The position numbers were made by a program, and so were the translations under genes. The notes under the pieces were generated by a model. The model did not search any database, was not told the DNA's origin, and was given only the letters and a program-made list of their open reading frames with translations. Below are positions 10,871 to 64,000 of a DNA stretch of 64,000 nt, one piece after another. The DNA is from Minisyncoccota bacterium (lineage in GTDB: Bacteria > Patescibacteriota > Minisyncoccia > Phycocordibacterales > UBA9973), in the NCBI GenBank assembly GCA_043776915.1, contig JAYVQT010000003.1, positions 26,187-90,186 on the forward strand, read 5' to 3'. Each line of letters starts with the position of its first letter. The first letter of the stretch is position 1.

Positions 10871-12199
10871 TTATTTTAATTTCCTTACTATCTTCATAAA
10901 CTGATCATTGCGGTCGTATTCATTGATAAACATACCAAATGATGCAAAGCCAGGACTCAGGAGTACTATATCTCCTTTCTTTGCAGATTGTATAGCAGTC
11001 GAAACTGCATCTTTGATATTTGCAACTATAATCGTATCTGTTTTTATTTTTTCGTTTAGAAGTTTATTGGTACCAGTACCAGCAAGTAAAACAATATATT
11101 TTGTATGCATAGTAATAGCTTTTACTAATGCACCGAGCGGCAAATTTTTATCTGATCCACCAGCGATTAAAATAATATTTTTCTTTTTACTTCCAAGTGC
11201 TTCAAGACCTGCGACAGTTGCCTCCGGGGTTGTCGCATTATTGTCGTTGTATATCTTTATGCCATGCACTTCTTTTACAAACTGCAAACGTCCTTCTAGT
11301 CCCTTAAAATCTGCTACGGCTTTCTTAATTTTCGTTAAAGGAATGTCGAATTGCTTAGCCACTTCCACTGCACAGGCAAGATTCTCACGCTGATATTCAC
11401 CTGGCACAATAAATTTCCACGAAGCAACATCTTTTTTGCTAGCAACAATAAGGTCTGCTTTAATATTTTTAGGAATAAGTTTCTGCATACCTGGGCGAAT
11501 AACAAGTACATCACCCTTTTGTTGATAATTGAAAATATTTGCTTTATCAGAAAAATACGTTTTCATATTATCTTTATAGTAATTCATATGATCTGGCATA
11601 AAGCTCGTAAATACAGAAATATCAGGCGATAATTGTATTTCGCCAAATCCTTGGAGTTGCCAGGAATCAAGTTCAAGTACTACAATGTCGCCGTCTTTTA
11701 CTTTTTTAGCCAGCGGTAATGTTGCCTTCCCGCGGATATTGCCACCGATAAATACGTTGCGGCCCAGATAACTTTCATTTGCTTTTAGTATTTCGTAGAT
11801 GAGTGTCGTCGTCATAGATTTACCACGAGTACCCGTGATACCAACAATGATTACCTCAGGGCATAATTCTACAAAAAGTGACGCGTCCATTTTAACCGGA
11901 ATATTATTTTTCTGTGCTTCTTTTATATAGATAGAGTCGAGGGGCACACCCGCAGATTTGATAATCATATCTTTATCTTTAAAATCTTTAAGATCATGTG
12001 TACCAAGTGTATACGTGATATGTTTGTATTTTGAAAGTGCGTTAATTGAAGTAGCCAATTGTTCTTTAGTTTTCAGATCAGTCACTGTTAAAATCGCTCC
12101 CTGTTCTGCAAGGAATTTTGTATACCCCAGACCTCGTCCCAAAAGCCCGAGTCCCATAATAGTAATCTTTTTATTTTTAAAATAAGTTTTGTAATTCAT
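10871..12199 (-). CDS. murD: UDP-N-acetylmuramoylalanine--D-glutamate ligase
   Basis: ITIMGLGLLGRGLGYTKFLAEQGA N-terminus and Mur ligase architecture. A 2-nt gap to murC suggests an operon. Confidence 0.85.
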   Translation of the reverse strand: MNYKTYFKNKKITIMGLGLLGRGLGYTKFLAEQGAILTVTDLKTKEQLATSINALSKYKHITYTLGTHDLKDFKDKDMIIKSAGVPLDSIYIKEAQKNNIPVKMDASLFVELCPEVIIVGITGTRGKSMTTTLIYEILKANESYLGRNVFIGGNIRGKATLPLAKKVKDGDIVVLELDSWQLQGFGEIQLSPDISVFTSFMPDHMNYYKDNMKTYFSDKANIFNYQQKGDVLVIRPGMQKLIPKNIKADLIVASKKDVASWKFIVPGEYQRENLACAVEVAKQFDIPLTKIKKAVADFKGLEGRLQFVKEVHGIKIYNDNNATTPEATVAGLEALGSKKKNIILIAGGSDKNLPLGALVKAITMHTKYIVLLAGTGTNKLLNEKIKTDTIIVANIKDAVSTAIQSAKKGDIVLLSPGFASFGMFINEYDRNDQFMKIVRKLK

Positions 12200-50145: not shown

Positions 50146-51654
50146 ATGAAAAAAACACAAACACAGAAAATAGGCTTCTTTATCAGAGAGTTGCGAGAAA
50201 AGAAAAAGCTGACTCAAGAGGCATTTGCCCAAGAACTTGGCACATCTCAATCAGCTGTCGCCCGAATGGAGAAAGGCGAGCAAAACTTCACTACCGAATT
50301 ACTTTCTAAAATAAGTGGAATACTCGAGCATCAAATTGTATCTATAAATAAATCTATGGATTTTCAAGTAGTTGGTGGTAAGAAATTACACGGCAGTATC
50401 ACGACGACATTTTCCAAAAATGGTTCTGTTGGTTTACTGTGCGCTACACTTTTAAACAAAGGAACCACAACACTCCACGGCATTGCTCGAATCGAAGAAG
50501 TCTATCGTGTGATTGAAATACTCGAAAGTATTGGTGTCGAAATAAAATGGACAGCTCCCAATACCGTCGTCGTCACACCACCCAAAATATTTACACTGAG
50601 TTCACTCAATGTGGAATCAGCAATTAAAACCCGATCAATCATAATGCTGATTGGTCCGTTAATCCATATATTACCTTCATTCTCTATCCCTCACGCTCAA
50701 GGATGCAAGCTCGGCAAGCGCACGATCTCAGCTCATACATACGCACTCGAAGAGCTTGGTGTTAAAATTAAAACCACAAATACTACATATGAAGTACATA
50801 TGACGAAGCTTAAGTCCTCTGATATTATCATGTACGAATCAGGCGACACTGCCTGCGAAAATATCCTCATGGCTGCGTCAAAAATTGAAGGAACCACAAC
50901 TATTGAATGTGCGAGTGGTAACTATATGGTTCAGGAAGTCGGCTTCTTTCTTCAAGCACTCGGCGTAAAAATCGAAGGTATCGGCTCAGGCACGCTTATC
51001 GTTCACGGAGTAAAAGATATACATATAAATCTTGAATACCATAATAGTGAAGACCCTATTGAATCGATGATGTTCATCTCCGCTGCGATAGCAACAGATT
51101 CCGAGCTTACTATACATCGTTGCCCGATAGATTTTCTAACACTTGAACTGTATCGACTCAAGAAAATGGGATTAAAATACAAAGTCCTTAAAAAATACGT
51201 TTCTAGGAATGAAAAAACAAAACTCGTCGATATACAAATTATGCCGAGTATTCTAAAAGCCCCATATGATAAAATTCATGCAAATCCATATCCTGGAATC
51301 AACATCGATAATCTTCCCTTCTTTGTGCCAATCGCTATACGAGCCCAAGGTACAACACTTATTCATGATTGGTTCTATGAGAATCGTGCAATTTATGCGA
51401 CCGAACTCAATAGGCTCGGAGCCAACGTTACTCTCGTCGATGCTCATCGTGTCTATATCACAGGAGGCACACCTCTTACTGCTGCCCAAGTCGTCTGCCC
51501 GCCAGCACTTCGCCCTTCTATGGTTATCCTGATATCAATGCTCGCTGCCGAAGGCACTTCTATACTTCGCAATGTCTATATGATAAAACGAGGCTATGAG
51601 GACGTCGCTGAGCGCTTGAACTCCATCGGTGCAGAGATTACCATACTGAAATAA
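50146..51654 (+). CDS. murA: UDP-N-acetylglucosamine 1-carboxyvinyltransferase (MurA) with N-terminal XRE-type HTH domain fusion
   Basis: Residues ~10-65 form an HTH_XRE-like domain (LRELREKKKLTQEAFAQELGTSQSAVARMEKGEQNFTTELLSKI). The EPT-fold MurA body follows, with the active-site Cys loop AQGCKLGKR. The ORF-track start at 50110 is also possible. Confidence 0.85.
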   Translation: MKKTQTQKIGFFIRELREKKKLTQEAFAQELGTSQSAVARMEKGEQNFTTELLSKISGILEHQIVSINKSMDFQVVGGKKLHGSITTTFSKNGSVGLLCATLLNKGTTTLHGIARIEEVYRVIEILESIGVEIKWTAPNTVVVTPPKIFTLSSLNVESAIKTRSIIMLIGPLIHILPSFSIPHAQGCKLGKRTISAHTYALEELGVKIKTTNTTYEVHMTKLKSSDIIMYESGDTACENILMAASKIEGTTTIECASGNYMVQEVGFFLQALGVKIEGIGSGTLIVHGVKDIHINLEYHNSEDPIESMMFISAAIATDSELTIHRCPIDFLTLELYRLKKMGLKYKVLKKYVSRNEKTKLVDIQIMPSILKAPYDKIHANPYPGINIDNLPFFVPIAIRAQGTTLIHDWFYENRAIYATELNRLGANVTLVDAHRVYITGGTPLTAAQVVCPPALRPSMVILISMLAAEGTSILRNVYMIKRGYEDVAERLNSIGAEITILK

Positions 51655-51703
51655 TACCCTAAAATTTAGACAAGAATAATAAAATATTTACTAGCTTTTG
51701 GTT

Positions 51704-52486
51704 TTATATTTTCTTAACCTCAAAACACATAAAGAGTGGAATCTCTTTGCGAGCTATATCTTCTGCTTTTTGGCGAGGTCCATTCTGGCTTTGCTTGTGG
51801 GAAATCCACTCTTCGAGGCGAGAAACGGCAAAGCCATTCTTGGCAAATAACTTTACATAGTACTGAAGTGGTCGGTGAAATGAAATTGTTTTAATTTTCT
51901 TTTTAATATCTTTCTCGCCCGGCGTCATATCGATCGATACTTTTGTTTCAGAAAGATATTTGCCGATAATCCGATACTGTGTCCCATCTTTAAAATACCA
52001 GTCGCTTCCTTGTGGTACACGAAAACTTGGGTGATTCAATACGAAGACAATCCTACCAGTCTTTTTTAAAATACGCTTGCACTCCATGAGTACTTCATTC
52101 ACATTCTCAATATTCTGAATTGAAAGAATAATAGTAATAACATCAATTGAATTATCTTTCAGAAATAGCGCCTTATGAGCTGGTGTAGTATAAAATTTTA
52201 TATCTTTTGGAGAATTCTTTATAGCTGCCTCAATCAACTTCTTTGATAAGTCAGAAGCGGTGATGGTCGCACCACTTTTGTAAAATAGATTTGTGAAATA
52301 ACCCTGTCCGCATGCTAGATCGTACACCTGCTCACCTTTCTTTAAATCAAGTACACGAAGTAAGTTCGGTGCAATAACTTTCGACTGATAGCTATCAGTG
52401 TCATTCTTTAAAAGGTCATCGTACCAGTTGGCAACGTTGTTCCATGAAGTATCTTTTAGTTTCTTATGCAAAGGATTATTATTCAT
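51704..52486 (-). CDS. Class I SAM-dependent methyltransferase
   Basis: Motif I VYDLACGQGYF and a Rossmann-fold pattern. Confidence 0.7.
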   Translation of the reverse strand: MNNNPLHKKLKDTSWNNVANWYDDLLKNDTDSYQSKVIAPNLLRVLDLKKGEQVYDLACGQGYFTNLFYKSGATITASDLSKKLIEAAIKNSPKDIKFYTTPAHKALFLKDNSIDVITIILSIQNIENVNEVLMECKRILKKTGRIVFVLNHPSFRVPQGSDWYFKDGTQYRIIGKYLSETKVSIDMTPGEKDIKKKIKTISFHRPLQYYVKLFAKNGFAVSRLEEWISHKQSQNGPRQKAEDIARKEIPLFMCFEVKKI

Positions 52487-52542
52487 GTGCCTAGTATAGC
52501 AAAAATTCTTTAAAAACCTGCTTCCTCGACAGTATGTAAAAA

Positions 52543-54009
52543 CTATTCAATAATAGTCATGTCTGATGCGGTAAGTCCTTTATCTAAGTCATCATGAGTG
52601 GAAGTTTTCTTACGGAGAAGAATGACACTTGCAATTGCAATAATTATAATAAAAATAAGTCCTATCTCAGTCAACATATTGTTTGATATTTTCACCTTTG
52701 CATTATCAGCGCTTGCCCCGAGAGTATTTAGGTCGATAACTCCGGGTTCTGCCATTTTTATCTTTTCTAGTTGCATCATCTCTTCTGTATTTGGTATTGA
52801 TTGTATTTTATTTTCAACTGATGCGCTGTGCTGTATGGGAACTTTTATTTTCGAAAGAGTCGGAGTAGTCAGTGGATAAAAGGCTGTATTTTCCCTATAT
52901 GGATTTTGAAGTGTAACTGATTTTAAATCTTCTGCTATAAAACCTGTTCGTCGTGGTGAGAATTTTAATTTATTTTTGGGTAACATTATTGTATTACCCG
53001 GAATAGTAAAACTATGAGTAACTCCTTGTACAGTCCAGTTAGAAATATCTATCTCATAGCCGGATTTATTCTCGAGCTCGATATATGGATCGGTCTCAGC
53101 ACCAACAGAGCTAATAGAAATCTCAGGTGAAACAACTTTTATAATCATTCGATCGGTTGCATCGGGGTGACTTACCCAATAATTGGAATAATATGAAAGA
53201 GACAAAACGTAGTCACCGGGATAATCATATGTGTAGGTGAATTCTTTCTGTTCACTAAGAGTAGTTATCATACCGTCACCGAAATTCCAGACAAATTTTC
53301 CTCGTGTGAGTGGCTCTTTACTGAGGCCGAGCGTTTGGGCGTCAACAGTAAAAGACAAACCTGAAAACACAATATTCTTCGAAAGAATATTGGTGGTGAT
53401 TTTTGGTATCTCAACTTCTTTTTTTATGACTGGTTTTATTGACACAGAAGTACTCGCTCCTCCACCTCCAGCAGAAGTCATAGTCACTCCATTAGTACTT
53501 CCTGGTTGATTATCCTTACCAGGAGTAGGAGGAGCGCCTGACCACGATCCATTCAAAAATTGAAGTGAATTCCCATCCCCTGCTGCTCCTTGGCTTGAAG
53601 CAAAGATAACTGAGCTCACAATATTTTGATCAGGATCTTTCAGTGCAATCGTCTCACTATCATTATTAAACCCCGTCCAACTACTATCAAACAAGAGCCC
53701 AGAATAATGTGACCAATCAGCTTTAAATTTGGGAGTATTTTGTGCAATGACTGCATAACCACCAGCCGGTACTTCGGACAATCCTTGTGGTACGAGCGCA
53801 TGCTTAGTATTGTCTGAGAAAAAATACCACTTAGAAAGATCAGCAGGAGCAGTACTTGTATTATGCACTTCAATCCATTCACGATTCGTATCAGTTCCCT
53901 CAAGATCATACATAATCTCTGAAATTTCAAAGCTCGCTACTACCAAATGAGGCAACAAGAAAAGGACTAGTAGTAAAGCCAGATGTAGTTTTATTATTTT
54001 CTGAGACAT
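52543..54009 (-). CDS. Cell-surface protein with lamin-tail domain (LTD) and C-terminal TM anchor
   Basis: Signal peptide, LTD signature EIMYDLEGTDTNREWIEVHN and a C-terminal hydrophobic helix. Confidence 0.65.
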   Translation of the reverse strand: MSQKIIKLHLALLLVLFLLPHLVVASFEISEIMYDLEGTDTNREWIEVHNTSTAPADLSKWYFFSDNTKHALVPQGLSEVPAGGYAVIAQNTPKFKADWSHYSGLLFDSSWTGFNNDSETIALKDPDQNIVSSVIFASSQGAAGDGNSLQFLNGSWSGAPPTPGKDNQPGSTNGVTMTSAGGGGASTSVSIKPVIKKEVEIPKITTNILSKNIVFSGLSFTVDAQTLGLSKEPLTRGKFVWNFGDGMITTLSEQKEFTYTYDYPGDYVLSLSYYSNYWVSHPDATDRMIIKVVSPEISISSVGAETDPYIELENKSGYEIDISNWTVQGVTHSFTIPGNTIMLPKNKLKFSPRRTGFIAEDLKSVTLQNPYRENTAFYPLTTPTLSKIKVPIQHSASVENKIQSIPNTEEMMQLEKIKMAEPGVIDLNTLGASADNAKVKISNNMLTEIGLIFIIIIAIASVILLRKKTSTHDDLDKGLTASDMTIIE

Positions 54010-54021
54010 AGAGTGAGGATA

Positions 54022-56322
54022 TTATTCTAGTACTTTGAGTAATACTTCTTCAGGAACCTCTTTTCCGGCCACACGTTTCTGCCATTGACTACGTGGGATA
54101 TTTTGATTAGATTGATTCGTTTGTACAGAAGGACGTGATACTGCCTCCGGTTCAGATTTTGTTTCTACCGGATCAGGTTTCGGCATTGTAACTGATACGT
54201 TGGTATGAACCGTCACATTATGAATTGGCGTCGGCGCCACTGCTTCTGGTTCTGGTTCTGGAATCGGAATTGCCAGGCGCGTAACTGGAATTTCAACTTT
54301 TAGTGGAACTGGTTCTACGGCCGGTACGGGATGAGCTATTGCTTTCATTAAAAGTTCTTTCAGTGATGCTTTCTTATCTTCGGATGCTTCTTTAGTTGGA
54401 AGATGTATCGCGGTAGTATGATGAGACTTTTTTAATGTCGAAAGAGATACTGGAACAGCTGTAGCAGCTTTGACTGGAATTGCCTGTGGTGAAATTTTCG
54501 GCGCTGACTTTTTATGATCATCTTCAATTTTTTCAAGTAAACCTTTTAAAAGTGGCGATGGACCTACATGCTTACGCTCAACTGGCGTATACGTTGGACG
54601 ATTATTTTGTATTGATGCTCGTGGAGCCGAAGAATTGGTAGTTTTATTTTGTGTTTGCGGCAAAGGATTTAGGGGTACTGAACGCGGAGAACTTGTTGGA
54701 TATTTTTGCTGAATTTGTTGGATAGGTTGAGCGTCTCTGATCGGTCGCTGCGATAGAGCGCTCGGGGCTTTTGCTCCAGTATCAGCAAATTCAATACCAA
54801 GCATTGCAAGCGGTGCAGTTGAATTCTTTTCATCTTGGCGAGCTGAACGCGTAGCCACAAAGCCAGTCTGAGGCTTGAGCTCTCCGCTCTTAATCTTAAA
54901 CATACAATCTTTACAATAGACTGGTCGGCCCTCTTTCGGCTCGAATGGCACCATGGTTACTTTACCGCAGTTTGAGCAGTCAGCTTTAAACTTCGCCGCT
55001 TCATCACCAACTTGGAGCATACCGCTCCACTTTGATATTTCATTTTCAACTTCTTCACGGGGTCGAGCATAAAGCGAACGTGACATATCTATAATCTTTT
55101 CTTTGACTCCAGCTGATGGATCAATCGTCATCGGTGGAAGAGTGCTTGCCGAGAATGGTCGACTGGTTACGCCGTCAATCATGAGCTTCAAGTAGACGTG
55201 GTAGTTCGGCAAATTCACTAAGTCTTGCGCCGTAAACTCAGGCTCAAATTCTTTCTCAATAAATTCGGCATCATCGGCACCAACGCGGAAGATAACCATC
55301 GTGCCGACGTTACCAAAAACAGCATCACGGACTGCTGTACCATTTTCATTCGATAGTTGAGCTGTATACTGGTGAGCAATAATTAAATTGAGGCGATACT
55401 TACGAGCCTCAGAGAGAATGTTGGCAAATGAATCGGTCGCGAAGTTCTGGAATTCGTCAACATAGAGATAGAAATCTTTACGCTCATCTTCGGGAATACG
55501 CACGCGCTCCATGGCGGCGAGCTGAATTTTCGTAATAATCATACCTCCAAGAAGTGCTGAGTTATCTTCACCGACGCGCCCTTTTGAAACGTTCACGAGA
55601 AATATCTTCCCTTCGTTCATGATTTTAAATATATCAATCGTCGACTTTGACTGCCCGACAACATTACGAATAATAGATGTTGAGAGGAATTGGCCAACTT
55701 TGTTCTGAATTGGGGCAATGGCTTCATTACGGAATTGCTCACGCCACTGCTCGTACTCATGAACCCAGAAAGCTTTGACCACTGGATCTTTCAAGTTGCC
55801 GATAATCATCTGGCGATAATCTTTGTCGACAAGCAGACGCGGAATACCAAGGAGTGTCGTACCAGGAGTGTCGAGAAGTGCTAAGATAGCATTATTGAGA
55901 ATGTACTCCATACGAGAACTCCAGGCATTGGCCCAAATCTTTGTAAAAATTCCCATCAATCCTGAAGCGACCAAGTGCTTATACTTTGGATCATCGAGCG
56001 CAATGACATTGAATCCGACATTAAAATCAACATCAGCAGGATTAAAGTAGATGACATCTTTGGCACGATGATCAGGAATCAGATGAAGAATTTCTTCCAC
56101 AAGCTCACCGTGCGGATCCACCACACAAACACCCTCGCCATTATTGATATTCTGAACAATCAGATTTGAAAGGAGGACTGACTTACCTGTACCTGACTTT
56201 CCAAGTACATACATATGCTGACGACGATCGCGTCTCTTGATCCCAAAGGCATTCTTGGTGTTACGAAAATTCGTCCGACCGAAGTAAGTGATGTCTCGAT
56301 TTTGTGGGATATCGTTGTTCAT
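54022..56322 (-). CDS. VirD4/TraG-like (type IV coupling protein-like) P-loop ATPase lacking N-terminal TM, with long disordered C-terminal tail containing a CxxC...CxxC zinc ribbon
   Basis: Walker A VLGKSGTGKS and Walker B plus downstream YLYVDEFQNF...NLIIAHQYTAQL, which match the T4CP family pattern. Paralog of 62397-63875. Tail of about 330 aa rich in P/S/T/K. Confidence 0.6.
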   Translation of the reverse strand: MNNDIPQNRDITYFGRTNFRNTKNAFGIKRRDRRQHMYVLGKSGTGKSVLLSNLIVQNINNGEGVCVVDPHGELVEEILHLIPDHRAKDVIYFNPADVDFNVGFNVIALDDPKYKHLVASGLMGIFTKIWANAWSSRMEYILNNAILALLDTPGTTLLGIPRLLVDKDYRQMIIGNLKDPVVKAFWVHEYEQWREQFRNEAIAPIQNKVGQFLSTSIIRNVVGQSKSTIDIFKIMNEGKIFLVNVSKGRVGEDNSALLGGMIITKIQLAAMERVRIPEDERKDFYLYVDEFQNFATDSFANILSEARKYRLNLIIAHQYTAQLSNENGTAVRDAVFGNVGTMVIFRVGADDAEFIEKEFEPEFTAQDLVNLPNYHVYLKLMIDGVTSRPFSASTLPPMTIDPSAGVKEKIIDMSRSLYARPREEVENEISKWSGMLQVGDEAAKFKADCSNCGKVTMVPFEPKEGRPVYCKDCMFKIKSGELKPQTGFVATRSARQDEKNSTAPLAMLGIEFADTGAKAPSALSQRPIRDAQPIQQIQQKYPTSSPRSVPLNPLPQTQNKTTNSSAPRASIQNNRPTYTPVERKHVGPSPLLKGLLEKIEDDHKKSAPKISPQAIPVKAATAVPVSLSTLKKSHHTTAIHLPTKEASEDKKASLKELLMKAIAHPVPAVEPVPLKVEIPVTRLAIPIPEPEPEAVAPTPIHNVTVHTNVSVTMPKPDPVETKSEPEAVSRPSVQTNQSNQNIPRSQWQKRVAGKEVPEEVLLKVLE

Positions 56323-56368
56323 AGATTGATCTTATTATACAACAACATGTATCGTTTAAAAAGGGAAA

Positions 56369-56911
56369 TTAAATATACTTCTTCATTGCATTCATTAATT
56401 CAGGAAAAGTATCTTGCGGATAGAAGTGACCTTGGGTGAGCTCACGGTAATCACTTTTTAATTTTACACTTATAAACTGAGCTTCCTCTATTGGAATGAA
56501 TTCATCATCCACCGAACTAAATTGAATAATCCATCTTTGATTTTGTTTTATAGCATTCCAGTCCCATGATCCATCATAGTAGCCACTGACTTTCTCGCTG
56601 TCCAAACCAAGATCAGTATGGCATGGCGCAACCAAAACAGAACCTAAGAGTGTATGGTTCTCAGCATACCGCATAGCCGCTACTGCTCCAGATGAGTGCC
56701 CTATCAGAATAGTATTTTCATTTGTCCCTAAGCTTTCCAGAAACGGTAGCCAGTATGATCGGCGTGCAAGTGCTCCATCGGGGAATGTAGGAGTCAGCAC
56801 TTCGAGCCCTAACTTCTCAAGTTCTATCTTCGCATAAGAAAACCAACCATAGAGTGTATTCCCATCTCCCCCATTCCCTGGTAGAAATATAACTTTAGTA
56901 GTATTTTTCAT
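56369..56911 (-). CDS. Alpha/beta-fold serine hydrolase (YdeN/RBBP9-like, GHSxG)
   Basis: 180 aa with the nucleophile elbow LIGHSSGAV. Confidence 0.6.
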   Translation of the reverse strand: MKNTTKVIFLPGNGGDGNTLYGWFSYAKIELEKLGLEVLTPTFPDGALARRSYWLPFLESLGTNENTILIGHSSGAVAAMRYAENHTLLGSVLVAPCHTDLGLDSEKVSGYYDGSWDWNAIKQNQRWIIQFSSVDDEFIPIEEAQFISVKLKSDYRELTQGHFYPQDTFPELMNAMKKYI

Positions 56912-56929
56912 ATTTTTATAATTAGCTGT

Positions 56930-56965
56930 GTTTACATTTTTTGACAGCCGTCAAAAAATGTAAAC
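56930..56965. repeat. Perfect 16-bp inverted repeat with 4-nt spacer (gtttacattttttgac agcc gtcaaaaaatgtaaac)
   Basis: Read directly. It lies 1 nt after the stop of the upstream minus-strand gene and about 18 nt before the hydrolase start codon. Confidence 0.7.
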
Positions 56966-56966
56966 G

Positions 56967-57542
56967 TTATGTAGTATGTGTGAGCTTATAGTCAACAATT
57001 TGGCTGACCAGAATACCCCCGAAGCAAATAAGAATATAGCCAGTCATGGCTTCAAGATATGACAGAGGAATGTGGCCAAGCATGCCGAGCACAAAAGCTG
57101 AAAGCCACGACGCCAAAGACACCGAACCAAATGCAAAAGACATCTTGCGAATTTTTACATATTTATGACTCATATTAACGTCAGTAAAGTTAATCTTACG
57201 TAGGGCCGGATGAATGAGTTTTTGAAAAAGATAGCCGTTCACAATAATGACTCCCACAATACTCATTTTCACCAAGAATTTTGGCGAGTGAATATAGCTA
57301 TTCGGATCAGAGAGAAAAAGCGCAAGACCTGACAGAACAATGAAGAATAAACTAGTCCAGACAATGGTTGAGAGTGTACTGAGCGTTCGATCTTCGTTCG
57401 GTTGAATTTTCTTGTCCTTAATATACACATTAAATAAAATATCAGATATCAGCGCTGCGCCCATACCCACAACCACCGAGAGCACGTGAATAATAACTGA
57501 GATATATTTGTAATTACTAAAAAATTCTATTATGTCCTCCAT
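56967..57542 (-). CDS. Hypothetical membrane protein (about 5 TM)
   Basis: 191 aa, hydrophobic. Confidence 0.4.
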   Translation of the reverse strand: MEDIIEFFSNYKYISVIIHVLSVVVGMGAALISDILFNVYIKDKKIQPNEDRTLSTLSTIVWTSLFFIVLSGLALFLSDPNSYIHSPKFLVKMSIVGVIIVNGYLFQKLIHPALRKINFTDVNMSHKYVKIRKMSFAFGSVSLASWLSAFVLGMLGHIPLSYLEAMTGYILICFGGILVSQIVDYKLTHTT

Positions 57543-57569
57543 ATGAAAGTATTATACACGAATATACTA

Positions 57570-57950
57570 TTAATTCACTTCCTGCTGATAACACGACTCG
57601 CAATACACAATATCAGGTCGGTCAGATGCATAGGAGGTCTCGAATTTTTTTTGACATATACCTGAATGCTCATGGTTTTCCTGTGTACACATACATGAAC
57701 GATTAAATAGATTTCTCTCGGGTCTAAATTTAATACGTTTCTCGTAACGACAGTTGGGGCAAAAACGTGGAATAGGAATAACGTGCTCTCTATAGAATTT
57801 CAATTCTTCAGATACAATATTGTAATTCCGCTCACAACCTATACATTTTAGTACCTCACTGGTAATACTATCACTAATATCAAGAATACTATCAATTACA
57901 TTTTCTGGTGCTATGGTTTCTTTTCCTTTTCTTACGGGTATATCATCTTG
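57570..57950 (-). pseudogene. C-terminal portion of a split Cys-rich modular protein gene: in frame with upstream CDS 57951-59261, separated only by a single TAG
   Basis: The 126 codons after the TAG stop of 57951-59261 translate to QDDIPVRKGKETIAPENVIDSILDISDSITSEVLKCIGCERNYNIVSEELKFYREHVIPIPRFCPNCRYEKR...CESCYQQEVN, which is colinear with the C-terminus of paralog 59736-61454. There is no in-frame ATG. The ORF-track 77-aa call begins at a TTG. Confidence 0.5.
57613..57703. repeat. 91-nt segment with 1 mismatch to 59779-59869 (3' ends of the Cys-rich paralog genes)
   Basis: Direct comparison shows 90/91 identical. Flanks are more diverged. Confidence 0.8.
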
Positions 57951-59261
57951 CTATGTAAATCCTCCAGCAAGGGCTTGTTCTTTTGAAAGTGGCATAAATA
58001 TTTGGCCTTGTGTTTCGTTATATCCAAAAGGAGAAAGTAGTGAAGGAAAAAATTCGCCATATTCAGATGTTTTTTTCATATGTTCAATTAATTTATTTTT
58101 GAGTAACTCATACTCATCTTTTTCGTACGGTCTATTTAAAATACAATAATTTGATTTTTTTAACCCAACACAACCAAAAAGATTTTGAGAATTATGGCAT
58201 GAATCACAATATTCAATAAAAATATCGTCCCATGAAAGATGCGAGAACTTAGTATAGGATGAATTAGACATTGCATGAGATTCATAAATCATCATCCCTA
58301 TGCCTACACTAAATATATCCATAGCGTCTTTCACTTCTGCAGTTGCTACTGAATACTTAATAGTATCAGAAGCAAAGATATCAAAATCATTATGACAATT
58401 CTTTGAATTATATATTACATCACCAGAAACATTTACAGACCTTTCTATTTGACCATAGCGATGCAACGCGTTAGTTTTTAACATTTCTTTCCATTGAGCA
58501 TATAGACTACTTCTTGTTTGGAAAGAATCTAAGTTGTATTTTTCCATACGTACCATATATTCTTCTTTTGTGTATTGCGTATTTAAAATACAGTATTTTT
58601 TATTACGCAAATTATATGACATAAAGCAATCTGAACAATTTCTACAATCGTAACAGTATGAGCAATTTATAGAATCATGTGTCAGGAGACAAAACTGACA
58701 ATTATAATCTCTATCGCAAGAAATACATTCATAAAGGAAGGTTCCCTTATCGATAATCATATTGCAATCACATGATTCACTTACATGATTCCAACAATTA
58801 CTTGAATAAAGAACATTCTCACTATTAAAAACATCAAAGCATAAATAACAATTTTTGTTATCTTGGGAATGATTAGTGTATTCACTTTGTATTGAATTTT
58901 TAGATAATAATGCAACACGAGGAACTTTTAATTGTAACTCTAAAAACTGCTCAAAAAATGGGCGAGAAAAATCTATTTCTTGTGCAAAATCTTTTGCATC
59001 CCAACTATCACCCCACCAACAAGCTGAACAATACACTTTAAACGGAGACAGAGGATTATAAATAGTGACAGTTGATTTAGTACATAAATCACAATTCCTT
59101 CGATATAAAGTCCTTTCATTACGCCAAGAATAGCGACGGCGTTGCCTGCAGTCCGGGCAAAATGTCGGTGGTGGTACCTTCATCTTCTCGTAAAAACCGA
59201 AGTCATCCGGTTCGATTGTGAAGTCTTTTTTGCAGTTTTGGCAGGTTTTTGTTTCTTGCAT
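57951..59261 (-). CDS. Cys-rich modular protein (N-terminal zinc ribbon plus internal tandem CxxC-type repeats); N-terminal 436-aa part of a gene split by an in-frame TAG
   Basis: N-terminal CQNCKKDFTIEPDDFGFYEKMKVPPPTFCPDCR. Repeats such as NCWNHVSESCDCN, ECISCDRDYNCQFC and CSYCYDCRNCSDC. The N-terminus is near-identical to paralog 59736-61454. Confidence 0.55.
   Translation of the reverse strand: MQETKTCQNCKKDFTIEPDDFGFYEKMKVPPPTFCPDCRQRRRYSWRNERTLYRRNCDLCTKSTVTIYNPLSPFKVYCSACWWGDSWDAKDFAQEIDFSRPFFEQFLELQLKVPRVALLSKNSIQSEYTNHSQDNKNCYLCFDVFNSENVLYSSNCWNHVSESCDCNMIIDKGTFLYECISCDRDYNCQFCLLTHDSINCSYCYDCRNCSDCFMSYNLRNKKYCILNTQYTKEEYMVRMEKYNLDSFQTRSSLYAQWKEMLKTNALHRYGQIERSVNVSGDVIYNSKNCHNDFDIFASDTIKYSVATAEVKDAMDIFSVGIGMMIYESHAMSNSSYTKFSHLSWDDIFIEYCDSCHNSQNLFGCVGLKKSNYCILNRPYEKDEYELLKNKLIEHMKKTSEYGEFFPSLLSPFGYNETQGQIFMPLSKEQALAGGFT
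59164..59244. repeat. 81-nt segment identical to 61360-61440 (5' ends of the two Cys-rich paralog genes)
   Basis: Character-by-character comparison shows 81/81 identical. Confidence 0.85.
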
Positions 59262-59318: not shown

Positions 59319-59345
59319 GAAAACCCCGAAAGGGGTTTTTGTTTT
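59319..59345. terminator. Hairpin terminator gaaaacccc gaaa ggggttttt
   Basis: 9-bp stem immediately downstream (on the minus strand) of the MazF-like gene stop. Confidence 0.5.
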
Positions 59346-59721
59346 ATATTATAAGACGTATCTTTTCTTTTAATCTATTTAATTCAGTTGATTCTACCTT
59401 TCCTACAAAACGTAGCAATCTTTTAGCATCAAATAATCGTACTTGCGAAAGTATAACGGTAGATCTATGAAATGATTCTAATGTAAAATAATATTTACCA
59501 ATCTTCGGCTGGCTCGTCAGAGGCACACCCATAAATATATGGTTGTTAAATTTTCTGGTAATCAAAACAGGTCTTTCAAAATTCTTATTTTTTCCATCTT
59601 CTTCATCTCCAATATTTTTACCCATATGTAAAAACCACACTTCTCCTTTACCAAAGAAAATTCTCTCATTCATTGAAATTTTCTTTTTTAAACTATTCCA
59701 TATGTCAAAATCTTCTTTCAT
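59344..59721 (-). CDS. PemK/MazF-like toxin-fold protein (putative)
   Basis: GEVWFLHMGKNIGDEEDGKNKNFERPVLITRKF...FMGVPLTSQPK resembles the MazF/PemK pattern (G.vw.v.f....G.E..k.RPvlv....VvPlTs). Start set at the internal Met to avoid overlap with the upstream gene. Confidence 0.45.
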   Translation of the reverse strand: MKEDFDIWNSLKKKISMNERIFFGKGEVWFLHMGKNIGDEEDGKNKNFERPVLITRKFNNHIFMGVPLTSQPKIGKYYFTLESFHRSTVILSQVRLFDAKRLLRFVGKVESTELNRLKEKIRLII

Positions 59722-59735
59722 ATTCAAATTATAAT

Positions 59736-61454
59736 CTAATTCACCTCTTTTTGATAACAACTTTCGCAATAAATAATTTCAGGTCGGTCAGATGCATAGG
59801 AGGTCTCGAATTTGTTTTGACATATACCTGAATGCTCATGGTTTTCCTGTGTACACATACATGAACGATGGAAAAGTTTTGGTTGATTTATAAATTGTAG
59901 GCGATTAAGAAATCTACAATTATGACAAGTATGAGGAAGTGGTAATCCTACACGTTGATAAAACTGCAACTCTGCTGGTATGATACGATATGCACGTTTA
60001 CAATTCTCACACGCAATTACTTCTTTTGTAATATCATCAGAAACATCTTGCAACAAATCAGGTACACCTGAACCATCTAATGTTGTCTGAAATTCTTTTG
60101 CACTTGGTTCACGCCATGTAAACCCTTGATCAAGGGCTTCTTCTTTACGTATTGGTACATAATCTTGTGCCAAACTCTCATTGTAAGCCAAAGGTGAAAA
60201 AGAAAATGGGAAAAAGTCGCCATATGTATACACTCTCCCTTGTTCATCGACATACGGCATATCTTTCATATGTTGTATTATTTTAGGAACAAGTATTTCG
60301 TATTCTTCTTTTGAATATTGTTTATTTAAAATACAATATTTATTCTTCTTCATACTTACACATCCAAAACAATATGACGTACCAAAACAATACCCACAAT
60401 ACTCTATCTCACGAACATTACCGAATGAATTAAAACAACATTTTAGTCCATATGCTCCATCTCCACAAGTCATACACTCGTATGCATTTTCTATATTCAT
60501 AAAAAGCTGACAGGAGTCATATGAATTTGCTGCTTTTAATACACTAATCTGTACATATCGTAGATTCTCGCCATTTTCAACAGAAAAGGAATCACGTACA
60601 TTTTTTGAATCACTAATTCTATCACCGGTACAATTAAGATTTCGCGTACCATGATAATATTTAACTGGGAACTGTTGCCAAAACTCCAAAACTTTTTCTC
60701 GAATATGCACGATGGATTGGTATGAAGATAGATTCATCTCAAATATCCTTCTCTCATATTCTTCTTTAGAAAGTGGTTCATTGAAAAAATAGTATGATTT
60801 ACCACGAAGATTTACACACCCGAAACAATTCGTACAACCACGAAGTCCTTTACTAAACCACACATCTACACAACTTTCACAATCAACAGAAAAGAACGTC
60901 TGGTACGACTTATATACCATGACACATTCGTAGCACAATTCATCATCTATTAATTCATGAGAATCAAATGAATTTTTTACATTAGTAACTTTTACAAGAT
61001 ACGCCGAGTCTTCGATAAAATCTGCATCGAAACACAAATATGCATTTTTAAGTCTCCCTGCCTCATTGCAGTAGTCAGAATTAATCATAAACCCAGCAGA
61101 AGACTTTGCCATAATAGGTACTCTCTTAAACAATTCCAAAAATTGCTCAAAAAACGGCCGTGAAAAATCATACTCTACACCATACTCTAACGCATCCCAC
61201 TCATCACTATACCAATATGTTGTTTCGTATGTTTGTATTGATGATTCAGGAGGAATACCTGAAAATGAATCCTTCCCAGTATGAGCATCTGTTCTACGAA
61301 AAAGATTACGTTCGTTTCTCCATGCTAATCGACGTACCATCCGACACTCTGGACACCACGTCGGTGGTGGTACCTTCATCTTCTCGTAAAAACCGAAGTC
61401 ATCCGGTTCGATTGTGAAGTCTTTTTTGCAGTTTTGGCAGTTGCGGGTTTCCAT
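59736..61454 (-). CDS. Cys-rich modular protein, intact 572-aa paralog (zinc-ribbon module at both ends, internal CxxC repeats, duplicated KYCILN.QYSKEEYE segments)
   Basis: N-terminal CQNCKKDFTIEPDDFGFYEKMKVPPPTWCPECR and C-terminal CENCKRAYRIIPAELQFYQRVGLPLPHTCHNCR...SCMCTQENHEHSGICQ...CESCYQKEVN. Confidence 0.6.
   Translation of the reverse strand: METRNCQNCKKDFTIEPDDFGFYEKMKVPPPTWCPECRMVRRLAWRNERNLFRRTDAHTGKDSFSGIPPESSIQTYETTYWYSDEWDALEYGVEYDFSRPFFEQFLELFKRVPIMAKSSAGFMINSDYCNEAGRLKNAYLCFDADFIEDSAYLVKVTNVKNSFDSHELIDDELCYECVMVYKSYQTFFSVDCESCVDVWFSKGLRGCTNCFGCVNLRGKSYYFFNEPLSKEEYERRIFEMNLSSYQSIVHIREKVLEFWQQFPVKYYHGTRNLNCTGDRISDSKNVRDSFSVENGENLRYVQISVLKAANSYDSCQLFMNIENAYECMTCGDGAYGLKCCFNSFGNVREIEYCGYCFGTSYCFGCVSMKKNKYCILNKQYSKEEYEILVPKIIQHMKDMPYVDEQGRVYTYGDFFPFSFSPLAYNESLAQDYVPIRKEEALDQGFTWREPSAKEFQTTLDGSGVPDLLQDVSDDITKEVIACENCKRAYRIIPAELQFYQRVGLPLPHTCHNCRFLNRLQFINQPKLFHRSCMCTQENHEHSGICQNKFETSYASDRPEIIYCESCYQKEVN
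59779..59869. repeat. 91-nt segment with 1 mismatch to 57613-57703
   Basis: See partner copy. Confidence 0.8.
61360..61440. repeat. 81-nt segment identical to 59164-59244
   Basis: See partner copy. Confidence 0.85.
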
Positions 61455-61455
61455 A

Positions 61456-61941
61456 TTATTTAATCAATTGAGTAAACTGATCGAGTTGTCGACTTTTAAT
61501 AGTACTTTGTATAAAACCAAGGGTTGTTTGTAATTCTTTAATGGTATTTTGGTTTGATTCTGCGAGACGTTTTTGATTCAATACATACCCTTTGATTACA
61601 TAGTGGCGAAGCGTTTTTGTAGCCCATTGTCGAAAAATAATTGCCTTGCTTGAATTTGTTTTATATCCCACAGCCAGAACAACATCCAGAGAATATAGTG
61701 AAACTGGTTTATCTGAATTTGCAATGTGCATTTTTTGCACATTGTTTTTTGTATCAACTTCTTTTGATCTCAAGAGATTATGTATATGTTTAGTGATAAC
61801 TGAACGCTCAATGCCAAAAAGCTGAGCAATTTGGATTTGTGTTGCCCAAATAGTTTCCTTTGAAATATCAGCGTGAAATTCGATATTCCCTTTTTTGTCT
61901 TTATAGATAGCGAGGTTATTTTTTAAATCATTTTTAGTCAT
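61456..61941 (-). CDS. RhuM-family protein (virulence-protein RhuM / Fic-DOC-associated family)
   Basis: KGNIEFHADISKETIWATQIQIAQLFGIERSVITKHIHNL matches the RhuM family N-terminal core. Confidence 0.55.
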   Translation of the reverse strand: MTKNDLKNNLAIYKDKKGNIEFHADISKETIWATQIQIAQLFGIERSVITKHIHNLLRSKEVDTKNNVQKMHIANSDKPVSLYSLDVVLAVGYKTNSSKAIIFRQWATKTLRHYVIKGYVLNQKRLAESNQNTIKELQTTLGFIQSTIKSRQLDQFTQLIK

Positions 61942-62369
61942 ATGGATTTTGTGTTGAGCAGTGATGAATGGTGTGTATCTGGCTTGTACGGCGTGCCGAT
62001 TTTAATTTCTACATTTTTGATAATTTCTTTTTTAATTGCTTTTTTAATATTAGACAGGAGTGATGCTTGATCATAGCCAAGAAATAGTAAAGATGGGTTG
62101 ACTTCTTTGAGGGTATTATACGAACCTTCATCGAGGTCGCCAAGAAGCACACGATCGATCTCGGGAACTTGTAAAAGACTTTCAATACGGGATGCTTCAG
62201 TATAAATTGGTATTTTGCCTTTTAACTTTTCTACCATACTATCACGTGCCACAATAGCTACGAGATGTTCCCCTTGAGCTTTTGCTTCTTTAATAAATTC
62301 ACGATGACCATCATGAATCCCATCAAACACTCCAAAAATTATAACGGTTCGCGATTTCATAAAATTCAA
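61938..62369 (-). CDS. Small cytidylyltransferase-like nucleotidyltransferase (HxGH motif; TagD/RibL/FAD-synthetase-like)
   Basis: FGVFDGIHDGHREFIKEAK is a nucleotidyltransferase (H/T)xGH signature; 143 aa. Confidence 0.6.
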   Translation of the reverse strand: MNFMKSRTVIIFGVFDGIHDGHREFIKEAKAQGEHLVAIVARDSMVEKLKGKIPIYTEASRIESLLQVPEIDRVLLGDLDEGSYNTLKEVNPSLLFLGYDQASLLSNIKKAIKKEIIKNVEIKIGTPYKPDTHHSSLLNTKSI

Positions 62370-62396
62370 TGTATTATTATAATTGGTAATCAGTAA

Positions 62397-63875
62397 TTAA
62401 ATAAGGGGTTCACTGTTTTTTTCTTCTATGGCTACTAGATTTGTAAATTCATCGTTTGTCGAATTAGTATTTCGAGTAATGGCCGCTTTCTCTTGAGCTG
62501 AGCGAATAATGGTCGACTCTTCTTCGGCAATGAGCTTCTGAGCTTCACCGGCTGGAATAGCGTACTGGCGACGAGAAGCTTCGATAATGCGTGTACGATA
62601 TGAGGGGTGAGTTGCTGGAAGCACACGCAATGTCTCCGCTGAGAATGGGTCATAGCTTTCACCATCAATCGTCATCTTAATATAAAATTCTCCCACTCCA
62701 AGATTGATCATATCTTTGACATCAAAGATCGGTGCGAACTCTGGCTTGAGCTTGACTGCATCGTCACCACCGACACGGAATGAGATAATCGAACCAATGT
62801 TTCCAAGTACTGCTTGCTGAACTTTCGGCAAAAGCTGACCGACATACTGGTGAGCTACAATCAGATTCAGTCCATACTTACGGGCCTCTGACAAAATATT
62901 CTCAAACGTATCAGTCACGATGTTCTGGAACTCATCGACGTACAAATAAAAGTCAGCACGATCTTTCGGCTCAAGCTTGGCGCGTGCCATACCGGCTTGC
63001 TTGATCTTAGTCAAGAACATGGCTCCAAAGAACGATGAATTCTCTTCACCAATTTTTCCTTTCGAGAGATTGATGAGCAAAATTTTCTGTTGATTCATGA
63101 GCACTTCGATATCAATCTTATTCTGCTTCTGGCCGAAAATATTACGGAGCATCGGATCAGACAAGAATTGCCCGAGCTTGTTTACAAGCGGAATGATCGC
63201 ATCAGTATCGAACTTCTCGGACCAGTCGGCGAATTCGATAGCCCAGAATCGTTTGACCATGTCGTCCTCAATATACTCGACAACTTTCTGACGATAGTTA
63301 CGGTCGGTCAGCATAGAGATCATACCGCGCATCGTCGCGTATGGATAGTCGAGAAGCGCAAGGACGGTGAAGCGAAAGACGTGCTCCAAGCGTGGCGTCC
63401 AGTTTGCACCGAACTGCTTACGCAACACTTCGATTAAGCCTTGGGTTAGTTGGTGCTTAAATGTCGGGTCAATATTAGCAAGTGGATTAAATGATGACGG
63501 AAAGTCAACATCACCCGGATCAATAATGCAGACGTCATTAATACGATCTTCGGGAATAAAATTCAAGATGTCATCGATCAGTTCACCATGAGGATCAATA
63601 ATACAAACACCTTGACCGTATGCAATATCTTGACGAATCATCAACTCTTGGAGTTTCGATTTACCTACGCCAGACTTACCGATAATATACATGTGTCGTC
63701 TACGATCAACACGCTTGATACCAAAAACGAATTTCTTTTCTTCAAGTGAAGCTACGTAATTCGTCCGACCGATAAAGCAGACTTCGGCAGGATCAGACTG
63801 ACCAAGAGTTGGTAAATCTGGTGGAGGTGGAGCGTACTTTATGATTTGAATTTTATTTGGTTTGTTGAGCGCCAT
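62397..63875 (-). CDS. VirD4/TraG-like (T4CP-like) P-loop ATPase, paralog of 54022-56322, lacking the C-terminal tail
   Basis: IIGKSGVGKS Walker A and YLYVDEFQNIVTDTFENILSEARKYGLNLIVAHQYVGQL. High identity blocks with the other copy throughout the ATPase core. Confidence 0.6.
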   Translation of the reverse strand: MALNKPNKIQIIKYAPPPPDLPTLGQSDPAEVCFIGRTNYVASLEEKKFVFGIKRVDRRRHMYIIGKSGVGKSKLQELMIRQDIAYGQGVCIIDPHGELIDDILNFIPEDRINDVCIIDPGDVDFPSSFNPLANIDPTFKHQLTQGLIEVLRKQFGANWTPRLEHVFRFTVLALLDYPYATMRGMISMLTDRNYRQKVVEYIEDDMVKRFWAIEFADWSEKFDTDAIIPLVNKLGQFLSDPMLRNIFGQKQNKIDIEVLMNQQKILLINLSKGKIGEENSSFFGAMFLTKIKQAGMARAKLEPKDRADFYLYVDEFQNIVTDTFENILSEARKYGLNLIVAHQYVGQLLPKVQQAVLGNIGSIISFRVGGDDAVKLKPEFAPIFDVKDMINLGVGEFYIKMTIDGESYDPFSAETLRVLPATHPSYRTRIIEASRRQYAIPAGEAQKLIAEEESTIIRSAQEKAAITRNTNSTNDEFTNLVAIEEKNSEPLI

Positions 63876-63924
63876 GTGTGTTAAATTGTATCAAATTACA
63901 ATAAAATAGTATAATAATTCCATC

Positions 63925-64000
63925 TATGGATGACACTAAAAAGTTTTTACTCGAGGATGGCAAAGATTATATTAAGAAGTTGGGGCCCGGCCTTATTACT
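63925..64000 (+). CDS. Start of an unknown gene (partial, continues beyond right edge)
   Basis: ATG at 63925 followed by an open frame MDDTKKFLLEDGKDYIKKLGPGLIT to the window end. Confidence 0.25.

Follow-up and report, generated by a model that had tools for sequence, protein, structure and literature searches.

A premature TAG codon in one of two tandem copies of a cysteine-rich Patescibacteria gene, probably a recent nonsense allele

Genes and features of the locus

The DNA analysed here is a stretch of 64 kb from a member of the Patescibacteria (hereafter the window, to which all coordinates refer). On its minus strand, from position 59261 down to position 57570, runs a reading frame for a cysteine-rich protein that is split by a single in-frame stop codon. 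An ATG start opens a stretch of 436 codons (57954..59261), which appears in the list of open reading frames, is confirmed by translation, and corresponds exactly to an NCBI protein (P0001); it is followed by a premature TAG (57951..57953), by 126 further sense codons in the same frame (57573..57950), and by a TAA (57570..57572), which in the alignment falls where the homologs reach their C-terminus and represents the original stop of the full-length gene. The frame thus comprises 564 codons with the final stop counted, and the rebuilt protein has 563 residues. The run of 126 sense codons after the TAG, first noticed in a sequence-only reading of this DNA, is borne out by the minus-strand translation. 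The accompanying statement that this extension contains no ATG is incorrect, as one in-frame ATG is present at extension codon 87 (Met524, in the stretch SCMCTQ), albeit too far downstream to rescue the C-terminal module.

In an AlphaFold2 model, the 436 translated codons would account for the two N-terminal zinc ribbons, the Cys-rich beta-solenoid in the centre of the protein and a helical linker. The untranslated in-frame remnant encodes the C-terminal pair of zinc ribbons, and the translation shows the four cysteines of the first (Cys473, Cys476, Cys501 and Cys504; approximately 57750-57845, minus strand) as well as those of the second (Cys523, Cys536, Cys554 and Cys557; approximately 57591-57695, minus strand).

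An intact tandem paralog of 572 residues (59736..61454, minus strand), also terminated by TAG, is a member of a divergent subfamily. The rebuilt protein aligns with this paralog from residue 3 through to its end (43% identity, E = 5e-152), and the two are collinear, in agreement with the earlier estimate of about 563 codons versus 572 for the paralog. The paralog lacks the four cysteines of the second zinc ribbon of the family (C57, C60, C78 and C81), and several of the solenoid cysteines as well.

Two tracts at the ends of the genes are shared between these copies. At the 5' end, 81 nt of the split gene (59164..59244, minus strand) are 100% identical to positions 61360-61440 of the paralog. 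At the 3' end, downstream of the TAG, a tract of 133 nt (57571..57703, minus strand) is 91% identical to positions 59737-59869, including exact runs of 35 and 55 nt. Since the gene ends are nearly identical although the gene bodies show only about 50% DNA identity, both tracts are probably gene-conversion patches between the tandem copies.

Between the paralogs lies an open reading frame for a PemK/MazF-like toxin (59344-59769, minus strand; Pfam E = 3e-10), which overlaps the 3' end of the intact paralog; no obvious antitoxin gene was found upstream of it, and after it comes a hairpin similar to an intrinsic terminator (59319-59340). On the other side of the intact paralog, an open reading frame of 161 residues (61456-61941, minus strand) ends 1 nt before the start codon of the paralog, and its match to the profile of the RhuM virulence family covers no more than positions 9-76 out of 252. 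Judged by this partial match it looks like a truncated remnant, and its apparent truncation suggests a past rearrangement at the locus. The whole is flanked by two TraG/VirD4-like type IV coupling ATPases (54022-56322 and 62397-63875, both on the minus strand).

A large cysteine-rich family of the Patescibacteria

A search with the rebuilt protein retrieved at least 7,991 homologs at E<=1e-10 (8,000 candidates scored), of about 555-585 residues and collinear with the rebuilt protein. The best 120 of these 7,991 homologs have lengths of 552-596 residues, with the exception of P0001, the identical truncated protein of 436 residues, which originates from a single NCBI contig of 91.6 kb. All homologs with names come from groups of the Patescibacteria (CPR), i.e. 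Staskawiczbacteria, Nomurabacteria, Liptonbacteria, Paceibacterota and others. At 59-64%, with 64% for the nearest homolog, the identity of the split gene to its best homologs exceeds the 43% shared with the paralog, so that by sequence similarity it is the split gene, rather than the intact paralog, that is the more canonical copy.

Searches against Pfam and NCBIfam gave no significant assignment, with only sub-threshold matches to treble-clef zinc fingers. A strong zf_Tbcl_2 treble-clef zinc finger, the same finger type as in these weak matches, is present in the larger of the two flanking ATPases (residues 445-476 of the 54022-56322 product, E = 6e-14). The AlphaFold2 model, built from 33 sequences and of high confidence (pLDDT 87.6, pTM 0.84), predicts a three-part architecture for the family, with a Cys-rich beta-solenoid in the middle and a zinc-ribbon pair on either side. 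A second HSP in a BLASTP comparison shows the C-terminal zinc-ribbon pair to be a duplicate, within the protein, of the N-terminal one. Fold comparison yielded only weak matches to beta-solenoids, and no close solved relative.

The lesion and the state of the downstream remnant

Aligned against 31 homologs plus the paralog, the rebuilt protein has its TAG in a column that tryptophan occupies in 32 of the 32 other sequences, and the codon at the equivalent position of the paralog is TGG. The lesion is therefore a change of the family Trp437 codon from TGG to TAG, i.e. one G>A transition. None of the 32 aligned sequences has a stop at this column, and the disruptions that do occur in other copies of the family are located elsewhere or are frameshifts.

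The remnant retains all residues that are invariant in the family, including the eight cysteines of both C-terminal zinc ribbons. Of the columns conserved at 90% or more, the split gene keeps 38 out of 42 downstream of the TAG and 144 out of 146 upstream, a difference in losses (4/42 versus 2/146) that is nominally significant (Fisher p = 0.023). An equal or stronger downstream skew is seen in two of the 31 intact homologs, and up to 8 of the C-terminal conserved columns are lost in intact members, some of which lose none. We also considered relaxed selection downstream of the TAG; the value of 38/42 falls within the range of intact members and gives no reliable signal of decay.

Presence of the TAG codon in the population

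The codon in question derives from a metagenome-assembled genome (MAG). Independent assemblies of the same population were found in Logan, a resource of public per-run assemblies, by way of exact-product look-ups of the flanking genes. One contig (L080, run SRR22198271) corresponds to window positions 50967-57642 and another (L081, run SRR22198270) to positions 61411-64000, both at 100% identity. Each of them breaks off exactly 30 nt (k-1) into an exact repeat common to the two paralogs, within the shared tracts at the gene ends (L080 in the 3' tract, L081 in the 5' tract as present in the intact paralog). From this break rule it follows that the body of the split gene should form a contig of its own, spanning 57674-59193 and encoding a 5'-partial product of 413 residues (57954-59192). 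The predicted contig was indeed found (L082, run SRR23617274): it is 1,520 nt long, 100% identical to 57674-59193 with the TAG included, and recorded in four samples, the site reading ...GGATTTACATAGCAAGAT...

The nearest repeat shared with the paralog lies at least 248 nt from the TAG and the paralog has TGG at this position; a chimera with the paralog can therefore not create the TAG. An error of assembly or base calling, one of the options put forward in the sequence-only reading, is contradicted by the recovery of the same TAG in four samples on this contig, together with flanking contigs from two other runs that are 100% identical to the window. The TAG is a genuine feature of the population's DNA, having been assembled independently several times, which effectively excludes a random error in base calling or in assembly of the MAG; an intact TGG allele may be carried by a minority of the population. 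More generally, per-run public assemblies can substitute for the inspection of reads where a base in a MAG is suspicious.

Other searches for strain variants gave no match: among JGI metagenome contigs, neither an exact pattern of 24 bases across the TAG nor a subsequent codon-degenerate pattern of 41 nt was found, and exact-product look-ups of the 436-residue protein, P0001, the paralog and the MazF-like open reading frame returned nothing. Neither the source genome nor a near relative is among the GTDB representative genomes, where the best match is 53% identical.

TAG as a stop codon and possible decoding signals

Among 60 non-overlapping open reading frames of at least 80 residues in the window, 43 end in TAA, 14 (about 23%) in TAG and three in TGA. 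In-frame tails after the stop are 3-27 codons long in the 13 other TAG-ended frames and 126 codons in the split gene, which is the sole long one; an in-frame TAG with a long tail thus occurs as a single case in 64 kb. TAG is a functional, ordinary terminator in this organism, as it closes 13 other open reading frames of the window with tails of at most 27 codons. The sequence-only reading had pointed out that TAA and TGA are ordinary stops, which is correct; of more relevance here is that the same holds for TAG.

The context of the premature stop is TAG-CAA-GAT, and the base C directly after the TAG is likewise found in four of the 13 other TAG-ended frames. Five tRNAs were identified in the window (Phe-GAA, Arg-CCT, Gly-CCC, Trp-CCA and Leu-CAA), and neither a tRNA with a CUA anticodon nor pylT is among them. 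No release-factor GGQ motif was found within the 64-kb window, the only Rfam families detected there were tRNAs, and promoter- and terminator-like matches occurred at chance level. The 120 nt from the TAG onward have a minimum free energy of -10.7 kcal/mol versus a mean of -13.9 for shuffled sequences (z = +1.19), i.e. they would fold less stably than shuffled sequences.

Disruptions in other copies of the family

A background survey covered 172 near-full-length copies of the family at 79 loci in GTDB representative genomes, of which four (about 2%) are disrupted by a nonsense codon or a frameshift. Two of these have a TAA, near residue 324 (L003) and near residue 350 (L068), at positions unrelated to that of the TAG studied here. 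The other two are frameshifts, one at approximately 11350-11400 of its locus in a genome with 5x coverage (L072) and one at approximately 2650-2670 inside an A7 run (L073). The frequency of 4/172 implies that sporadic inactivation of single copies is normal in this expanded family. A natural split into two complete open reading frames was found in 0 of the 172 copies.

Both frameshifts are located within about ten codons of the same Trp column, in the purine-rich linker that precedes the C-terminal module. Together with the TAG of the split gene, three of the five family disruptions are thus found within about ten codons of the conserved tryptophan. We regard the clustering of the two frameshifts as a mutational or alignment hot spot, which leaves one loose end, in that the region of the tryptophan may also be a tolerated break point.

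Interpretation of the split gene

Of the options raised by the sequence-only reading, a recent nonsense mutation is the one supported by the data, with a tryptophan found in 32 of 32 homologs replaced by a stop that is one transition away from TGG, and an intact frame downstream. With a probability of about 0.8, we propose that the split gene is an ordinary recent nonsense allele, which arose by a G>A change at the Trp437 codon in one of the two tandem copies and truncates the product. A transition from TGG to TAG in this copy would end translation after residue 436, because TAG is a normal stop in the genome, and the product would be devoid of the double zinc-ribbon module at its C-terminus, while the 126 codons beyond the stop would remain untranslated. 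The lesion would be young, since the remnant keeps 38 of the 42 conserved columns, and this young age, together with the homogenisation of the last approximately 130 nt of the remnant with the paralog through gene conversion, would account for its still pristine state. We infer that termination at the TAG is efficient, with loss of the C-terminal module, and that the split copy is dispensable or degenerating through redundancy with its paralogs; as such paralogs exist, a truncated variant or young pseudogene would be tolerated. One observation counts against this proposal, in that the absence of secondary damage in the 126 codons would also be expected if the tail were still translated to some extent.

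The split gene closely resembles young bacterial nonsense pseudogenes in multigene families, which likewise have one premature stop at a conserved codon, an otherwise undamaged frame and an adjoining intact paralog, and are accompanied by sporadic, unrelated disruptions in copies from other genomes (here 4/172). By these sequence features there appears to be no essential difference between them. The TAG lesion per se matters little, and the annotation due is that of a pseudogene or truncated allele, rather than one of unusual decoding.

Programmed readthrough is exemplified by the A1 protein of phage Q-beta (at UGA), gag-pol of MuLV (at UAG followed by a pseudoknot) and the tobamovirus context UAG CAR YYA, and its sites are conserved among orthologs. 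Leaky or programmed readthrough of the amber codon in the split gene, by a near-cognate or suppressor tRNA, would yield isoforms of 436 and 563 residues. The likeness to the known cases consists of an in-frame UAG ahead of a long and meaningful open frame, which here is uninterrupted and preserves every zinc ligand and invariant residue, and of the CAA directly after the TAG, which forms the first half of the tobamovirus-type leaky context; moreover, the TAG allele is stable across the four samples. The second downstream codon is GAT, however, and not the YYA of that motif, and a C following the stop is shared with ordinary TAG-ended frames of the window. No stimulatory RNA structure, Rfam element or window tRNA-CUA accompanies the site, the downstream RNA being no more structured than shuffled sequences. 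Unlike the known sites, the stop is present in no homolog, and instead of marking the boundary of a domain extension kept among orthologs it replaces an invariant structural tryptophan. Conservation of the stop, which defines programmed readthrough, is lacking, since none of the orthologs carries one in this column. When bacteria decode UAG through a near-cognate tRNA, the residue incorporated is usually Gln, Tyr or Lys, and readthrough would therefore not restore the conserved tryptophan. The suggestion of an amber readthrough site in the sequence-only reading is thus unsupported, and we consider it very unlikely. Known reassignments of stop codons include pyrrolysine at UAG, TAG to Gln in recoded phages and, in Gracilibacteria and Absconditabacteria of the same superphylum as the source organism, UGA to Gly (code 25). 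The organism studied here thus belongs to a group with a known code change, albeit of UGA and not of UAG, and a genome-wide reassignment of TAG to sense, or pyrrolysine decoding, could be invoked for the in-frame TAG itself but for nothing further. TAG is an ordinary terminator for about 23% of the open reading frames; the 13 others that it closes, with the next stop at most 27 codons away, include well-packed operon genes and the paralog. The in-frame TAG is the only one in 64 kb, the window contains neither a suppressor tRNA-CUA nor pylT, and the homologous residue is Trp and not Lys or Pyl. Within the window, the ordinary use of TAG as a terminator refutes this explanation, and its probability is practically negligible.

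A sequencing, base-calling or assembly artefact, with TGG as the true codon and an intact gene, could be suspected from the single-base difference from the expected codon and from the position of the locus between repeats that break short-read assemblies. The restored sequence would also contain CATG, a common methylation motif, and, speculatively, systematic miscalls at such motifs on some platforms could be involved. Against this stand the identical 1,520-nt contig assembled per run in four samples and its agreement with the NCBI MAG protein P0001, the distance of at least 248 nt to the nearest shared repeat with TGG in the paralog, and the absence of other broken genes in the window, which points to a good consensus quality; an artefact therefore seems most improbable. 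A functional fission of the gene, in which the 436-residue core and the C-terminal zinc-ribbon module would be made separately through re-initiation after the TAG, derives some support from the two frameshifted copies (L072 and L073), which break within about ten codons of the Trp column at the junction of core and C-terminal module, and from a purine-rich, AAGGA-like stretch ahead of an in-frame ATA at extension codon 13. There is, however, no canonical start ahead of the third zinc ribbon: the first one, a TTG at extension codon 50, lies after the first CxxC of that ribbon, and the sole ATG only at codon 87. The lesions in L072 and L073 are of a different kind, being frameshifts within runs rich in A or in purines, of which one comes from the genome with 5x coverage, and among the 172 copies there is no natural division into two complete open reading frames. 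We therefore consider fission very unlikely.

There is likewise only a slim chance that the TAG allele is maintained for a benefit it confers, a core-only isoform being produced by readthrough at a low level or by a break that is tolerated where the beta-solenoid core meets the C-terminal zinc-ribbon pair. A hint in this direction is given by the three of five family disruptions close to the conserved tryptophan, and, if true, this clustering might represent a recurrent, selectable switch-off of the C-terminal module in an expanded family. With the split gene taken as an ordinary nonsense allele, it is the very large and uncharacterised Patescibacteria-wide family, rather than the single TAG lesion, that merits more attention. 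Its expansion can be clearly seen in other representative genomes of the Patescibacteria, where family copies are organised in tandem arrays of seven to about ten (loci L016, L018, L020, L058, L066 and L067).
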